Shown: positions 5,863 to 29,935, counted from the stretch's first letter. The stretch is 32,000 bases of DNA from Candidatus Iainarchaeum sp. (GCA_043808785.1 JAZDEL010000008.1:1-32000); one strand, 5' to 3'. Numbers and translations: made by a program. Notes: generated from the sequence alone by a model not told the origin.

Positions 5863-8049
5863 TCAGCCAACCTGTGCCTTAATTTGCTGCGCAACCTTCG
5901 GCCCGAGAATCCTGCCGAGGTCGGCAATGTCGATTTTTTTCAGTTCCGCAACAGTGCGCACGTTGCTGCGCCACAATCTGCGGGCACGCACGCGCCCGAT
6001 TCCACGAACTTCAACAAGCGCGAGCAGTTCCTCCTTTATCCCGTACTTGAGGCGCTTGCGCAGCCTGCCCAAGGGAACTGCATGGGTTTCAAGCGCAAGG
6101 AGGCGGCTTAATTCAGCAGCGGAGTAGGACAGCCAGTCCAAAATCTGCAGCTTGTTGTGCAGAATTCCTGGTTGCACATTGTACTCTTTCAGCAGGTCCT
6201 GCTCGCTGATTTCCTCCAGCCAGTCGCGCAGGAGTAAGGAAGAGTTGAACTTATTCAGCAGGGAATTGTCCGCGTACATCTCGATGTCAAGGTTGATTGG
6301 GAGTTCCTGCTTGTGCCCCTGCAGAAGTTCCCACAATTCCGCCTCCTTCTTCTTCGGCACGCTTAACCAGGGCATAAACTCGTAGCAACTAACCAAAGTG
6401 AAGATGTATGACATGGTTGCGGTTTTTCCCGCGCGCAGTGCCTCGACCATTTTGTGCGCGGAAAGCGGGTCAAGGTATAATTCTGAAACCCTTGCGCCCA
6501 GCGGGGTTGCGGAAACCCGCTTCCCGCCGTAATTTATGAAATCCCACTCCGCGAGTTCCTCGAGTATGCCGGTAAGTTTTGTGAAGAGGCTTGAGGTATC
6601 GCCGTACTGCTTCGCGTAAAAGGTTTTTGAGAAGAATTTTTCCAAACTCTCGAGGTCGGAAACGAAATTTGTCGCCACTGCGCCTAGGAGGTGCATGCGC
6701 AACACCGGCTCGATGCCGAGACGGGAGGAAACGGCTTCAATTTCCCCTTCTACATAATGCTCCATCAGCTCTTCTGCGTCCAAATCCGAGCGGGCGATGA
6801 GCACTGCCCTGCCCTCGCTGTCGAATTTCGGCCTTCCCGCACGCCCGGACATCTGCTTGTACTCCGAAACAGGTATGCGCTCCGAACCCTGCATGCCGTA
6901 GCGGTAAACCGAGGGGATAATTACCGTGTGGGCGGGAAGGTTTATGCCTGCTGCAAGGGTGGGGGTTGCTGAAATAACCTTCAAATGCCTGTTGCGGAAC
7001 AATTCCTCAATAAGTTCGCGCTGTTTCTGCATTAACCCTGCGTTGTGGAATGAAACCCCGCTTTTCACAACCTCGGAGAGGAGCCTGCACTGTTCTGTGG
7101 GGCTTTCAAGCACCTGCTCGATTTCGGAGGATTTTTTGAGCAAATAATTTTTTTCCTTTTCCAAAAGAGTTTTTTCAACGAGGCGGGAGAGGCGTTTTGC
7201 AATGCTCGAGGATTGCTTGCGCGTGGACGCAAACACCAGTGCCTGCTTGCCTTTTTTCAGGGTGTCCTGCACGAGGGAAGTTAGGGCGTCGAAATCCTGC
7301 GGTATTTCCTCCGCCAGGTATTTGCCTGCGGGAACCCCTGCGGGAACCAATCCTGAACCCGCTGCAGAACCCGCTTCGCGCTTGTGTTTTTTTTCCGGCG
7401 GATATTTTATTTCGTCATTGAAATAAACCCCCTCCAAAAGTTTAACCGGGCGGTATTCCGAATGCACGAGTTCCGCACCCAACCACTCCGACAGCTCGGA
7501 AGCGTTGGGTATGGTTGCGGAGAGGGCGAGAACCTGCATTTTCGGGTTCATGGAACGGAGCTTTGTTATCACGATTTCCAAAGTGGGGCCGCGGTCCGTG
7601 CCTAAGGAATGAACCTCATCAACAATCAGCAGGCCTATGCTGCTTAACCAGTCCGCGTTATGCCGCAAAAGGGAATCCAGTTTTTCATAGGTTGTGAAAA
7701 TCAGGTCGAAGTTTGAAAGGTATTTGCTGCTTGAGTCGAAATCGCCTGTGCTGATTGTGAATTTCACCTTCAGCGCGCTCGAGTATTTGCGCCTGAAATC
7801 GGAATAATGCTCCCCCGCGAGCGCGCGCAATGGGCAGGTATAAACAACCTTCCTGCGGCTGTTGATTATGCTGTTCAGGGCGCAGAGTTCCGCAATAACG
7901 GTTTTGCCGCTTGCAGTGGGGGCGCTGACAACAAGGTTCTTTGAATAAGGCTGTTTTTCGAGCACGGAGCGCTGCATCGGGTTGAACTGGTCGAAGCCAT
8001 TGAGTTCCTTTACCTTGTTTTCTACATTTACCTGTTTTTCTATATCCAT
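5863..8049 (-). CDS. hel308: Hel308/Ski2-type DNA helicase (superfamily 2)
   Basis: 728 aa with 'APTASGKT' (motif I), 'DEVH' (motif II), 'SAT' and 'MSGRAGRP' (motif VI). It has a C-terminal winged-helix/ratchet region and a helix-hairpin-helix 'VRGIGRVRARRLW'. Confidence 0.9.
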   Translation of the reverse strand: MDIEKQVNVENKVKELNGFDQFNPMQRSVLEKQPYSKNLVVSAPTASGKTVIAELCALNSIINSRRKVVYTCPLRALAGEHYSDFRRKYSSALKVKFTISTGDFDSSSKYLSNFDLIFTTYEKLDSLLRHNADWLSSIGLLIVDEVHSLGTDRGPTLEIVITKLRSMNPKMQVLALSATIPNASELSEWLGAELVHSEYRPVKLLEGVYFNDEIKYPPEKKHKREAGSAAGSGLVPAGVPAGKYLAEEIPQDFDALTSLVQDTLKKGKQALVFASTRKQSSSIAKRLSRLVEKTLLEKEKNYLLKKSSEIEQVLESPTEQCRLLSEVVKSGVSFHNAGLMQKQRELIEELFRNRHLKVISATPTLAAGINLPAHTVIIPSVYRYGMQGSERIPVSEYKQMSGRAGRPKFDSEGRAVLIARSDLDAEELMEHYVEGEIEAVSSRLGIEPVLRMHLLGAVATNFVSDLESLEKFFSKTFYAKQYGDTSSLFTKLTGILEELAEWDFINYGGKRVSATPLGARVSELYLDPLSAHKMVEALRAGKTATMSYIFTLVSCYEFMPWLSVPKKKEAELWELLQGHKQELPINLDIEMYADNSLLNKFNSSLLLRDWLEEISEQDLLKEYNVQPGILHNKLQILDWLSYSAAELSRLLALETHAVPLGRLRKRLKYGIKEELLALVEVRGIGRVRARRLWRSNVRTVAELKKIDIADLGRILGPKVAQQIKAQVG

Positions 8050-9196: not shown

Positions 9197-9599
9197 TTTC
9201 CTCAGGCGCCCTTGATTCGACAATGTCTGAAAGTTCCCCGAAGTGCCTGTCGCGCGTAACCATCAGCGCAAAGTTGTCCCTTGCTATTATCGCGTGGAAA
9301 GCATCGTTGAACGGCAATTGCCGTTCTTCTGAAATGCGTTCCGCCTCTTTTGCCTGTGCCTCGGAGAAAGCGACTTTCAGGATTATGCCGCGGAATGAGG
9401 AAAATGCCTCTTCCAGGCGCTCTTTTGGGACTCCCTTCAATTCCTTTAGGACAATATCGGAATAGAGAACCTTGCATTTGTGCTTTTCGCAATCCTTGAG
9501 GAACCTGAATGCCAAATCCCCGAGCGGCCTGATGCCGTTTCCGCGGGCGCCGAAATAATCCATCCAGATTGCGGTATCGAGGTAAAACCTGCGCTGCAT
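9183..9599 (-). CDS. PIN-domain nuclease (VapC-like), 138 aa
   Basis: ORF 9183..9695 trimmed to ATG 9599 (MQRRFYLDTAIW...). All four acidic PIN positions are visible: 'YLDT', 'LKEL', 'FNDAFH', 'TRDRHF'. Its 3' end overlaps the RHH gene by 14 nt on the opposite strand. Confidence 0.75.
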   Translation of the reverse strand: MQRRFYLDTAIWMDYFGARGNGIRPLGDLAFRFLKDCEKHKCKVLYSDIVLKELKGVPKERLEEAFSSFRGIILKVAFSEAQAKEAERISEERQLPFNDAFHAIIARDNFALMVTRDRHFGELSDIVESRAPEEITLG

Positions 9600-11074: not shown

Positions 11075-11245
11075 CAAAAAACAAAAAACCGAACGCGCGC
11101 GGTTCGCGGCGCGGTTTGCGGGGTTTGCTGCAGCAAACCGCCCAACCTGCGGCGCGGCAATGCTGCAAGCAAACCCTTGCCGCGGGGGCGCAGCGGACGG
11201 CAAACCTGCCTTGCCCTATGCGAACCTGCGGTTTTTTATTTTTGG
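11075..11245 (+). repeat. Intergenic repeat family R1, diverged copy C
   Basis: The 5' part 'caaaaaacaaaaaaccgaacgcgcgcggttcgcggcgcggtttgcggggttt' parallels 'caaaaaaacaaaaaacgcggttcgtgcgttcgtggttttttgggttt' of copy A. It contains the perfect 18-nt palindrome GGTTTGCTGCAGCAAACC (11122-11139). It ends in GCGGTTTTTTATTTTT, 20-31 nt before the ATG at 11263. Confidence 0.55.
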
Positions 11246-13004: not shown

Positions 13005-13388
13005 TTGGCCCTTCCAGAAAGCGAACACCTGGGTGGAATGGCCCAGACCAGCGGGCAGTTAACATTAAATACTGTTGTATATCAATTGATATATAGTGAT
13101 TTGATGCAAAAGCAGGCGCAGATTTTCAGGAACGACGTGCTCCGCTACCCCAGGCTGGACACGGTGCTGATGATTGAGAAGGCGATAATGGATTCAAAGG
13201 GCGACCTGACAGTAAGGGAAATCTGGAAGAAACTCCCGAAGCAGGCGATGTGGCAGACCTACATGGCCGCGCTGGATTACCTTGAATACAGCGGCAAAAT
13301 ACTGGTTGATGATGAAAAGCGCCCGATATGGATTTGGGCGCCGAGGGATGTCGAGGAACTTAAGAGGAAGGGGCTTGTGGCGAGATGA
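13005..13388 (+). CDS. Small winged-helix-like DNA-binding protein candidate (start uncertain: TTG 13005, ATG 13038 or ATG 13104)
   Basis: The C-terminal 90 aa ('LDTVLMIEKAI..GDLTVREIWKKLPK...WQTYMAALDYLEYSGKILVDDEKRPIWIW') looks like a wHTH with a beta-wing. TATATAAATA (12975-12984) and AAGGAG (12993-12998) precede TTG 13005. A perfect AT-rich 16-bp palindrome at 13078-13093 argues that coding may only start at ATG 13104. Confidence 0.5.
   Translation: MALPESEHLGGMAQTSGQLTLNTVVYQLIYSDLMQKQAQIFRNDVLRYPRLDTVLMIEKAIMDSKGDLTVREIWKKLPKQAMWQTYMAALDYLEYSGKILVDDEKRPIWIWAPRDVEELKRKGLVAR
13078..13093. promoter_or_regulatory. Perfect 16-bp palindrome TATATCAATTGATATA
   Basis: TATATCAA is the exact reverse complement of TTGATATA. 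It ends 10 nt before ATG 13104 and shares the TCAATTGA core with the 20-bp palindrome at 29813-29832. Confidence 0.5.
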
Positions 13389-13446
13389 ACCCAAAAATAA
13401 AAGAAAGGTATAAATAGGGGCGGGAACATAATAATTGGTGGGAAAA

Positions 13447-13632
13447 ATGGACGACAGAAGCAAATTCTTAACCCTATTCGTAAATTTGCCCGCTCCCATG
13501 CGAAAGGAAATTGCAGTCATTGTTGACGGGCAACCGTTCTCGTGGGAGAGGGCATACAGGGAAATACAGGCAGAAACAAAGCTCGGAAAAAAAATGTTAA
13601 AAGAACTTAGTGCATTAAAGTTGTGGGGGTGA
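13447..13632 (+). CDS. Small protein, 61 aa (hypothetical)
   Basis: ATG 13447 is preceded by GGTGGG (13437-13442), with GGTATAAATAGG (13407-13418) upstream. The stop is 4 nt before the next start. Confidence 0.5.
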   Translation: MDDRSKFLTLFVNLPAPMRKEIAVIVDGQPFSWERAYREIQAETKLGKKMLKELSALKLWG

Positions 13633-13636
13633 GGGT

Positions 13637-13849
13637 GTGCCAGAGATTTCTAAACAGGCGCAGATGCTGGTGCTTGAGAGGCTAAAAAATCTTCCGAGGG
13701 ATGCCAAATTGTCGGCAGGGGGCGGCCCTTCAGTTACAAAAGAGGAATTGATACAGCATGTAGAGAATCTGGATTCCGTGGGGAAAGAATACATCGAGAT
13801 GGAATTATTTTATTTGAGAAGCATCGCAAGAAGGCACGGGTCCCCATGA
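13637..13849 (+). CDS. Small protein, 70 aa (hypothetical; weak resemblance to the preceding 61-aa protein)
   Basis: The GTG start is preceded by GGGGTGAGG. Both small proteins share '..L..L.NLP..(10-14)..P-x-S/T..E......(I/V)..E....GK....EL'. The stop overlaps the next start (ATGA at 13846-13849). Confidence 0.5.
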   Translation: MPEISKQAQMLVLERLKNLPRDAKLSAGGGPSVTKEELIQHVENLDSVGKEYIEMELFYLRSIARRHGSP

Positions 13850-14487
13850 CATTCCTAATAACCCGCCCAGAAGATGACGACACAACATTGTATTTATCAG
13901 AATACTCGAAGCCTATAATTGAACTGGCGGAAGATAGGGGAATCGATGTTTTCGATTGCTTCCATGAACGTGCCTCAAAACAGAGAGTTACCTCACTAAT
14001 AACCGAAAAAAATCCGAAACTAATCATGTTCAACGGCCACGGGTCGCCTGAAATCATATCCGGATACAAATTCGAGCCGATAATAAGGCTGGAGGAAAAT
14101 GCGGATTTAATAAAGGACACTATTGTTTACGCCAGGGCGTGCCATACTGCCAAGGAATTGGGCAAGTGGTGCGGAGAAAACGGCAACGGAGTATACTTGG
14201 GCTATGACGACAAATTCCGCTTTTGGACAAGTTCGAGCTATTCGCATACGCCTCAGAACGACCCCTACGCAAAGCCAATTCTTGATGCTTCAAATCACGC
14301 GGCAATGTGCCTTTTGAAGGGCGGCACTGCGGGTGACGCACTCAGGCGTTCCAAAGAGGCGTTTGACAGCGTAATAGAGAGGCTTGAACGCAGCAACTCA
14401 CCTCAAAACCTTAGGTTCCTGCTCTCAGCATTGTATTGGAACAGGGAGCATCTGATAGGCTATGGGGATGAAAAATTAAAAATGTAG
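13846..14487 (+). CDS. Clan-CD-like (caspase/gingipain fold) cysteine peptidase candidate, 213 aa, no signal peptide
   Basis: A hydrophobic strand + His-Gly ('KLIMFNGHGSP') is followed about 35 residues later by a hydrophobic strand + Ala-Cys ('DTIVYARACHTA'). Predicted beta/alpha elements alternate (FLITRP / YLSEYSKPIIELAE / IDVFDCF / ...). This is the catalytic-dyad layout of C25/C11/C14 peptidases. Confidence 0.6.
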   Translation: MTFLITRPEDDDTTLYLSEYSKPIIELAEDRGIDVFDCFHERASKQRVTSLITEKNPKLIMFNGHGSPEIISGYKFEPIIRLEENADLIKDTIVYARACHTAKELGKWCGENGNGVYLGYDDKFRFWTSSSYSHTPQNDPYAKPILDASNHAAMCLLKGGTAGDALRRSKEAFDSVIERLERSNSPQNLRFLLSALYWNREHLIGYGDEKLKM

Positions 14488-14505
14488 CCAACTGGAGGTT
14501 TTTGT

Positions 14506-29780: not shown

Positions 29781-29812
29781 AACCCCTACTCTGTTTGAAA
29801 GGGTTTTTAACT

Positions 29813-29832
29813 ATTTCGTCAATTGACGAAAT
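29813..29832. promoter_or_regulatory. Perfect 20-bp palindrome ATTTCGTCAATTGACGAAAT upstream of the giant gene
   Basis: ATTTCGTCAA is the exact reverse complement of TTGACGAAAT. It lies 33-52 nt upstream of the ATG at 29780 (minus strand), flanked by A/T-rich TATA-like segments (AAATATTA and AGTTAAAAAC on the minus strand). Confidence 0.55.
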
Positions 29833-29935
29833 AATATTTGGCTCCGTTCTGCACTGCAAACACGGGCATCTTCCGGATTTCGGCGCGCTGCCGCGGCCCG
29901 TGCATCGGGCACGGCTTCCGGCACTTTCCCGCAGC

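Follow-up and report, generated by a model that had tools for sequence, protein, structure and literature searches.

We describe here a three-gene cassette in a stretch of 32,000 nucleotides from Candidatus Iainarchaeum sp. (GCA_043808785.1 JAZDEL010000008.1:1-32000; hereafter the window, meaning that stretch at its full length). Its last open reading frame (ORF), ORF-C, encodes a predicted minimal cysteine peptidase of clan CD, and in all 23 distinct loci that we compared it is preceded by the genes for two small proteins, ORF-A and ORF-B. The fold is known and so is the nearest sequence family, the gingipain family C25. What is new is a clan CD family with an obligate two-partner architecture, and neither the literature nor the profile libraries yielded a description of the ORF-C family or of the trio. 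The three genes are found in DPANN archaea and in bacteria of the candidate phyla radiation (CPR, or Patescibacteria), in unrelated genomic contexts. In the window genome they form a self-contained cassette of about 1.1 kb that has a foreign codon composition and occupies an exchangeable slot. The window itself comes from a DPANN archaeon, and a hypothetical protein in a Candidatus Diapherotrites metagenome-assembled genome (MAG) matches its ORF-C product with 100% identity.

ORF-C (13846..14487, plus strand) encodes a protein of 213 residues that is predicted to be cytoplasmic. An earlier note on this DNA had placed the protein in the caspase/gingipain fold on the basis of a His-Gly and an Ala-Cys motif, and had described it as devoid of signal peptide, transmembrane segment and extra domains. 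Its coordinates, its length and both motifs were found in the sequence as described: KLIMFNGHGSP and, with the cysteine 34 residues after the histidine, DTIVYARACHTA. The cysteine of the dyad is C99, as the note had it; the histidine, which it numbered H64, is H65. The top 19-residue Kyte-Doolittle mean is 0.56, the N-terminus of ORF-C is not hydrophobic, and no transmembrane-like hydrophobic stretch occurs in any of the cassette proteins. The structural model described below is a single globular domain, also in line with the note. We aligned 66 homologues with 27-60% identity to the window protein. Invariant positions are H65, G66, G73, C99 and G119, and those nearly invariant include P8, N63, G64, D139 and N150, among others; as judged from this alignment the motif conservation is far above chance.

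AlphaFold2 modelling of ORF-C with the 66-sequence alignment gave a mean predicted local distance difference test score (pLDDT) of 98.3 and a predicted template modelling score (pTM) of 0.93; a run with a 5-sequence alignment (pLDDT 59) was discarded in its favour. The modelled secondary structure runs b1-a1-b2-a2-b3-His-hairpin-a3-b4-Cys-a4-b5-long loop-three helices-b6. DSSP assigned beta-3 to residues 59-63, followed by G64-H65-G66, and beta-4 to residues 93-97, followed by A98-C99, with the hairpin formed by strands 70-72 and 78-81. This order agrees with the published description of clan CD, in which the catalytic His closes strand beta-3 and the catalytic Cys closes beta-4 at their C-terminal ends (PMC4357240). 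A Foldseek search of the PDB returned only clan CD enzymes, in 24 of 24 matches at E<=0.0031, with probabilities of 0.98-1.00. The best match was the SAVED-CHAT protease 8tl0 (E 1.3e-7, template modelling (TM) score 0.56), and others were caspase-11, caspase-4, plant legumains/asparaginyl ligases (TM up to 0.64) and gingipain R (1cvr/4ief, TM 0.61). A viral library gave only weak matches, of the giant-virus caspase and clostripain kinds. Going by the Foldseek matches, the spatial order of the strands in ORF-C would be that of clan CD.

At the sequence level the relationship is much harder to see. PDB sequence searches with ORF-C, with its profiles and with P0028, a relative of 37% identity, found no clan CD match, and fold comparison alone succeeded. 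No significant family was assigned to any of four window proteins (ORF-A, ORF-B, ORF-C and the product of the gene directly upstream of the trio) by Pfam, NCBIfam, PADLOC or PHROGs, and the window ORF-C did not match Pfam Peptidase_C25 at E<=1. P0028, however, scored 29.2 bits on Peptidase_C25 (PF01364; gathering cut-off 23). The match covers positions 215-374 of the 374 in the profile, which make up the His/Cys-bearing C-terminal subdomain. A further relative, P0009, scored a weak 14.9 bits, under the cut-off, and weak Peptidase_C25 matches at E<=0.1 were seen in 4 of the 66 relatives. The Pfam Peptidase_C14 and CHAT models were matched neither by the window protein nor by any of the 66 (E<=0.1). 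The topology of the model, the exclusively clan CD Foldseek matches, the invariant H65/C99 pair and the score of P0028 above the C25 threshold together identify ORF-C as a predicted single-domain clan CD cysteine endopeptidase whose nearest sequence family is C25. They bear out the fold proposed in the note.

An exhaustive search with a hidden Markov model (HMM) collected 1511 representatives of the ORF-C family at 50% identity (E<=1e-3), 205 of them at E<=1e-30. Nearly all are 205-220 residues long, and every named source but one is a CPR bacterium, a DPANN archaeon or an unclassified archaeon.

Comparison with the known members of the clan sets the family apart in several ways. Like gingipain R, it has a G-H-G around its catalytic His, and its helix alpha-1 begins with an acidic residue. 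The C25 gingipains, however, are secreted proteins of Bacteroidota and carry a signal peptide, a 229-residue prodomain, an N-terminal four-strand subdomain, an immunoglobulin superfamily (IgSF) domain and a C-terminal domain for type IX secretion, all of which are missing from ORF-C, a protein of CPR and DPANN genomes with two small partner genes. The CHAT proteases (SAVED-CHAT, the Craspase type of type III CRISPR, and those resembling the cyclic oligonucleotide-based antiphage signalling system, CBASS) are clan CD conflict effectors and include the best structural match. Their chains are more than twice as long as ORF-C, and the trio locus, in contrast to CHAT systems, lacks SAVED, TPR and CARF sensor domains as well as cyclic-nucleotide synthase and CRISPR genes. 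The earlier note had likewise remarked that the known partners of such proteases are missing. We found no CRISPR-associated or gasdermin family and no PADLOC defence family. Legumains (C13) gave the highest query-normalised TM scores (0.55-0.64) and have the same dyad topology, but no sequence similarity to ORF-C (9-13% identity in the Foldseek alignments). They are secretory or vacuolar, pH-activated, Asn-specific enzymes, inhibited in cis by a C-terminal LSAM prodomain and not by separate proteins.

The likeness to gingipain R extends to the putative specificity pocket. Clan CD peptidases are strictly specific for the P1 residue. In gingipain R the P1 Arg is bound by Asp163, where helix alpha-1 begins, and by Gly210 and Gly212, which flank the catalytic His. 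In the ORF-C alignment position 11, which is the N-cap residue of helix alpha-1, is acidic (D/E) in 65 of 66 sequences, D139 is kept in 65 of 66, and G64-H65-G66 is invariant or nearly so. The resemblance of D/E11, D139 and G-H-G to Asp163 and Gly210/Gly212 of RgpB leads us to predict that ORF-C probably cleaves after Arg or Lys.

The two small partners are as constant as the peptidase itself. Our comparison covers 19 archaeal and 4 bacterial loci, namely the window, 4 close relatives, 14 further archaeal GTDB genomes and 4 CPR/Patescibacteria bacteria, the taxonomic labels being those of the MAG records. The archaeal labels are Micrarchaeota, Iainarchaeum, Woesearchaeota, Nanoarchaeota, unclassified archaea and one Thermoplasmatales MAG, and the bacterial ones include Daviesbacteria and Microgenomates. 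The order A-B-C is kept in 23/23 loci, the four CPR bacteria included, with gaps of -23 to +33 nucleotides (nt). The strict linkage of the protease to both small ORFs that the note had made a touchstone of its proposal thus extends over archaea and bacteria alike. ORF-A (13447..13632, plus strand) encodes 61 residues from an ATG at 13447, the start favoured by the homologue alignments. Its orthologues, directly upstream of ORF-B in each locus, are recognised by the HMM with E-values of 1e-15 to 1e-39, and F7, R19 and W33 are invariant in all of them. ORF-B (13637..13849, plus strand) encodes 70 residues from a GTG start, was likewise found in 23/23 loci and is conserved to a degree comparable to ORF-A. 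Each of the two proteins has a mass of about 7-8 kDa.

The arrangement is that of a tightly coupled operon. As the note had described, ORF-B begins 4 nt past the ORF-A stop with a putative Shine-Dalgarno sequence of its own, GGGGTGAGG (13626..13634, plus strand), which overlaps that stop, and the start of ORF-C overlaps the stop of ORF-B in an ATGA at 13846-13849. The TATA-like box that it assigned to the trio, GGTATAAATAGG (13407..13418, plus strand), does precede the ORF-A ATG, by about 35 nt, and is a candidate promoter element. In most of the other loci, TATA-like (archaea) or TATAAT-like -10 (CPR) elements could be seen by eye ahead of ORF-A.

Beyond the trio nothing else travels with it. 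When neighbouring ORFs were clustered all against all, the only other family to recur in at least 3 loci was a glycosyltransferase (three loci, 4-5 kb away). A conserved fourth gene was accordingly rejected, with no further family in at least 3 of the 23 loci apart from this glycosyltransferase and an antisense-ORF artefact. The latter is a 128-residue ORF on the minus strand over ORF-B and ORF-C (window 13734-14120) that recurs in two other loci as a mere by-product of sense-strand conservation; it is very probably not a gene. The matrices of pairwise distances for the three proteins correlate with each other (r 0.52-0.78). In a neighbour-joining tree the four CPR proteins group together and are nested among DPANN archaeal proteins, which suggests transfer from one domain to the other.

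ORF-A and ORF-B are probably distant paralogues of one another. This kinship, already suspected in the note, was not significant with 5-sequence profiles and gained weak support with 23-sequence profiles, where hhalign aligned the two over 46 columns (P 7e-5, probability 63%); a second, local run gave a probability of 51%. In small databases the ORF-A HMM also catches several of the ORF-B proteins (E 6e-5 to 0.04). Profile-library searches found no significant family match for either protein. In the PDB the ORF-B profile matches response-regulator DNA-binding domains (5vfa at E 0.007, CovR/ArlR at E 0.04-0.07) in an alignment with the OmpR/PhoB type that covers helix 2 and the recognition helix, and Pfam Trans_reg_C is the top (most frequent) match, in 3 of 23 ORF-B members (best E 0.0035, below threshold). 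For ORF-A the only recurrent sub-threshold Pfam match is DUF7713 (5 of 23 members); single members weakly match MksE, DUF2250 and an O-methyltransferase dimerisation domain, which are winged-helix-like. ORF-B thus weakly resembles an OmpR/PhoB-type winged helix, and we tentatively read A and B as small winged-helix-like paralogues.

The exchangeable nature of the cassette was revealed by a close relative, L030. Directly upstream of the trio in the window lies a gene for a 94-residue winged helix-turn-helix (wHTH)-like protein, with an HD-domain phosphohydrolase gene as the upstream flank; downstream is the gene for a subunit of the nascent polypeptide-associated complex (NAC). The wHTH protein of L030 is 93% identical to that of the window. 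The DNA is 90% identical across the wHTH gene, the similarity stops just past its stop codon and it returns, at 80%, from the NAC ribosome-binding site through NAC and the next gene. Between these two points L030 has no trio but unrelated, overlapping genes for proteins of 76 and 280 residues. From the break points of this alignment the cassette, comprising promoter and ORF-A, ORF-B and ORF-C, therefore spans about 13395-14493 (13395..14493, plus strand). Codon composition also sets the trio apart. The G+C content at third codon positions (GC3) is 0.50 for ORF-A and 0.52 for both ORF-B and ORF-C, whereas 14 other window genes have values of 0.60-0.72 (0.72 for the wHTH gene, 0.67 for NAC). The closest relatives of the trio come from low-GC genomes, which fits its acquisition from such a donor. 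In two other genomes, L028 and L029, a ParE/RelE-like toxin gene follows the wHTH gene (its Pfam ParE_toxin match, at E 2e-4, falls narrowly short of the threshold), and the window trio occupies the position of this toxin behind the same wHTH gene in orthologous loci. The relevant regions are L028:2930-3635, L029:3001-3716 and L030:64-1643.

The gene pair that follows the wHTH gene in L030 (L030:567-1636) has a GC3 of about 0.50 and is dissimilar to A, B and C. Its 280-residue protein had no sequence match in the PDB and none by tblastn among plasmids, and the pair is possibly another two-gene conflict module. In the window no second copy of A, B or C and no degraded remnant of a ParE-like toxin was found, and a search round the cassette for insertion scars in the form of direct or inverted repeats gave only short matches at chance level. 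Metagenome scans with the 454-residue and HD-domain neighbour proteins found no relatives. An Rfam scan of the 32-kb window found no RNA family at gathering score.

Toxin-antitoxin (TA), defence and mobile genes recur among the neighbours of the trio. They comprise PIN/VapC, with a DDE transposase 4 kb away (L001); AbrB/MazE-like genes (L004, L007); a ribbon-helix-helix DUF7557 gene and Fic (L006), with an rve integrase upstream of the trio (L006/L009); and AbiEii and Fic (L025). ATPases of the AAA_14-DUF4143 type flank the trio in an archaeal locus (L013:4668-5834) and, on both sides, in a CPR locus (L025:4262-5407 and 6710-7840). Two unrelated archaeal loci have, about 200 nt downstream of the trio, MNT-antitoxin-like genes that combine a wHTH with a Pol-beta-type nucleotidyltransferase (L016:4857-5417, L020:4840-5370). 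In a Micrarchaeia MAG the frame of a XerC-like tyrosine recombinase (L014:2595-3752; E 2e-6 to 4a8e) runs stop-free into ORF-A; here an integrase therefore directly adjoins the cassette.

We favour, if tentatively, the reading that the trio is a horizontally mobile conflict module, akin to toxin-antitoxin or abortive-infection systems, in which the protease is the effector. Supporting its mobile and accessory nature are the foreign GC3, the exchange seen in L030 and the nesting of the CPR proteins among those of DPANN archaea. Small upstream genes coupled to a larger enzyme gene are also found in type II TA systems (ParDE/RelBE) and in tripartite ones, and the gene order of the trio is the type II layout. 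As in such systems, the trio is a compact coupled operon found in variable contexts and is mobile and patchy in distribution. It has a putative TATA-like element of its own, a patchy spread over two domains, an atypical composition and an exchangeable slot, and its neighbours are other TA genes and, upstream, an antitoxin-like wHTH gene whose partner elsewhere is a ParE-like toxin. We know of no described TA family in which the toxin is a clan CD protease or the partners are two paralogous winged-helix-like proteins. The note had proposed a self-contained TA- or defence-like module of regulator, small proteins and protease, and the genomic behaviour fits this for the trio; the wHTH regulator is not a component, as discussed below.

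In the mechanism that we propose, ORF-A and ORF-B would be made first, in stoichiometric amounts, and would hold the protease inactive as prodomain-like pseudo-substrates acting in trans. The invariant Arg19 of ORF-A is a candidate to fill the S1 pocket of the protease, in the way that the gingipain prodomain inserts an Arg into S1. The two small proteins may also bind DNA and autoregulate. Upon stress or infection they would be lost, displaced or cleaved, and the freed, Arg/Lys-directed protease would cut cellular or invader proteins. A functional analogy for the proposed relation of A and B to C may be found in separase and securin, where a clan CD protease (C50) is kept inactive by a small, separate pseudo-substrate; separase is eukaryotic, very large and has no sequence relationship to ORF-C.

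Several points weigh against this interpretation. The frequent position beside TA, defence and mobile genes, which may suggest an association, comes from a plain listing of the neighbours, and CPR and DPANN genomes carry many TA and defence genes anyway. At three loci the surroundings are of a housekeeping kind: isoleucyl-tRNA synthetase and ribosomal proteins in L027, a cell-envelope cluster in L026 and NAC in the window. A conserved operator upstream of ORF-A was rejected, as no palindrome or repeat is shared by the 23 loci. The median isoelectric points (pI) of ORF-A and ORF-B are 6.6 and 8.0 with a net charge of about 0, and DNA binding is therefore not indicated. Antitoxins usually evolve faster than their own toxins, and here the small proteins are at least as conserved as the protease (mean column identity 45% for A, 39% for B and 35% for C). 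In a search of PADLOC-DB 2.0 ORF-C and ORF-B were unmatched and ORF-A gave a chance-level match to JetB (E 0.038); NCBIfam and PHROG searches of the window proteins matched none, and neither tblastn of phage and plasmid collections with ORF-C nor a scan of IMG/VR found homologues. The S1 pocket is assigned by analogy with RgpB, and the toxicity, inhibition and cleavage ascribed to the trio proteins are predicted roles.

A wider version of the same interpretation is possible but doubtful. The trio would represent an unrecognised three-component class of protease-effector TA or abortive-infection systems that is confined to CPR and DPANN organisms and exchanged between them, with the two winged-helix-like paralogues A and B as a prodomain or sensor, encoded in trans, for a minimal gingipain-like protease. 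The wHTH gene and its palindrome would then mark a hotspot, or act as a generic regulator, for interchangeable cassettes such as the ParE-like toxin, the genes for the 76- and 280-residue proteins and the trio.

A different role for the same three proteins, which we consider unlikely, would be a switch based on regulated proteolysis. A and B would form a winged-helix heterodimer that represses genes elsewhere or their own cassette, and the protease would cleave them on a signal, in the manner of ImmR/ImmA, DdrO/PprI and CapH/CapP with a clan CD enzyme in place of a metalloprotease. This idea draws on the strict linkage of the trio, on the probable paralogy of A and B, which would suit a pseudo-symmetric dimer, and on the winged-helix matches of both proteins described above. 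All of these matches, however, lie below the family thresholds. Moreover ORF-B ends about 8 residues past the putative recognition helix; the beta-hairpin wing of the OmpR type is therefore missing. The absence of a shared repeat or palindrome ahead of ORF-A and the fact that A and B are not consistently basic count against a repressor too, and no regulated cargo gene is conserved beside the trio. In the ImmA/ImmR, PprI/DdrO and CapP/CapH pairs a small helix-turn-helix-type protein likewise stands beside a dedicated protease, but these proteases are COG2856-type metallopeptidases in front of the operon that is controlled, whereas the trio has a clan CD protease, two small proteins and no conserved cargo operon.

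It is distinctly improbable, in our view, that ORF-C is a housekeeping protease of CPR and DPANN organisms that matures or degrades proteins for an ultra-small, possibly episymbiotic life, with A and B as adaptor or chaperone subunits. The size of the family, its near confinement to these groups and unclassified archaea, the strong purifying selection on A and B and the housekeeping surroundings in L027, L026 and the window would all suit such a role. A housekeeping gene sits poorly, however, with the absence of conserved synteny across the 23 loci, with the foreign codon composition, with a relative that has the same flanks and no cassette, and with the inter-domain transfer suggested by the nesting of the CPR proteins.

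The wHTH gene lends itself to a further proposal, that of a four-gene module in which its product would serve the trio as a dedicated regulator and act through a palindrome; the evidence makes this very improbable. The gene (13104..13388, plus strand) lies outside the cassette and belongs to a highly conserved family (279 homologues, 55-93% identity). The earlier note had allowed for a protein of up to 127 residues with the palindrome at or near its start. We rejected the 127-residue, TTG-start reading as an over-extension; the homologues are mostly 94 residues long, which places the gene at 13104-13388 with an ATG start. The apparent conservation of the extension as a peptide in L029 arises because the DNA palindrome is conserved. 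The protein has no Pfam or PDB match, and its sequence pattern alone is what suggests a winged-helix fold. The palindrome, TATATCAATTGATATA (13078..13093), is a perfect one of 16 bp, as the note had it, and lies just before the gene, at -26 to -11 of the start codon. It is identical in L030, identical at the DNA level in L029 and kept as TATATATCAtttGATATATA in L028. Just upstream of it, TTAAATAC (13065..13072, plus strand), invariant in the alignment of window, L030 and L028, is a candidate TATA box of the wHTH gene. Since 51% of simulated windows hold at least 1 perfect palindrome of at least 16 bp, the one at 13078-13093 is not by itself beyond chance. Its conservation makes it a real cis element and a candidate operator overlapping the wHTH promoter.

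The window as a whole holds four perfect palindromes of 16-22 bp (9309-9326, 11122-11139, 13078-13093 and 29812-29833), against 0.69 expected from Markov-1 simulations. Three of them, GAACGGCAATTGCCGTTC, TATATCAATTGATATA and TATTTCGTCAATTGACGAAATA, have a CAATTG core in common, which may mark a common class of binding sites.

The place of the wHTH gene on the same strand next to the trio and the conserved palindrome would both fit a dedicated regulator. So would a wHTH homologue of 42% identity in a woesearchaeal locus (L019), which is divergently oriented 233 nt upstream of the trio. In four genomes the wHTH gene precedes variable cargo, in the manner of a generic defence-operon regulator. 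But the gene is absent from 21 of the 23 trio loci, it lies outside the swapped segment, and its GC3 of 0.72 agrees with that of the host and stands apart from the 0.50-0.52 of the trio. The palindrome precedes the wHTH gene itself and not ORF-A, which has its own TATA-like box, and the usual partner of the gene is the ParE-like toxin that follows it in two other genomes. The wHTH gene as a component or dedicated partner of the module, which the note had proposed, is not supported. It probably encodes an antitoxin or autorepressor that precedes variable cargo, or may act as a generic regulator, and in either case it may mark a variable slot.

Hardly credible, finally, is a role of ORF-C as a transpeptidase or ligase like the C25-like PorU, GPI8 and the asparaginyl endopeptidase ligases, cutting A or B and joining the product to another molecule to give a modified small protein or peptide. 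In its favour, several transamidases belong to clan CD, the highest query-normalised TM scores are to the asparaginyl endopeptidase/ligase structures 6l4w and 6l4y (0.63-0.64) and two dedicated small proteins are co-encoded, but this fold likeness is generic to clan CD, the C-termini of A and B vary in length and sequence with no conserved recognition or propeptide motif, and no export, modification or immunity genes are linked to the trio in the 23 loci.

Clan CD proteases are increasingly seen as executioners of prokaryotic immunity, as in the CHAT proteases, Craspase and the proteases that activate gasdermins. If the trio is a mobile conflict module with a protease effector, as we tentatively favour, the ORF-C family would add to these a minimal, stand-alone clan CD version with dedicated small-protein partners. 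At 213 residues and with no accessory domains ORF-C is among the smallest of clan CD folds, and it is attractive for structural and mechanistic studies of restraint in trans. The variable slot anchored by the wHTH gene offers a handle for finding more cargo modules in DPANN genomes. Little is known of defence and addiction systems in CPR and DPANN organisms, which have tiny genomes and many of which live as obligate symbionts. A cassette that these lineages share across the two prokaryotic domains also provides a clean marker for the movement of genes between them.

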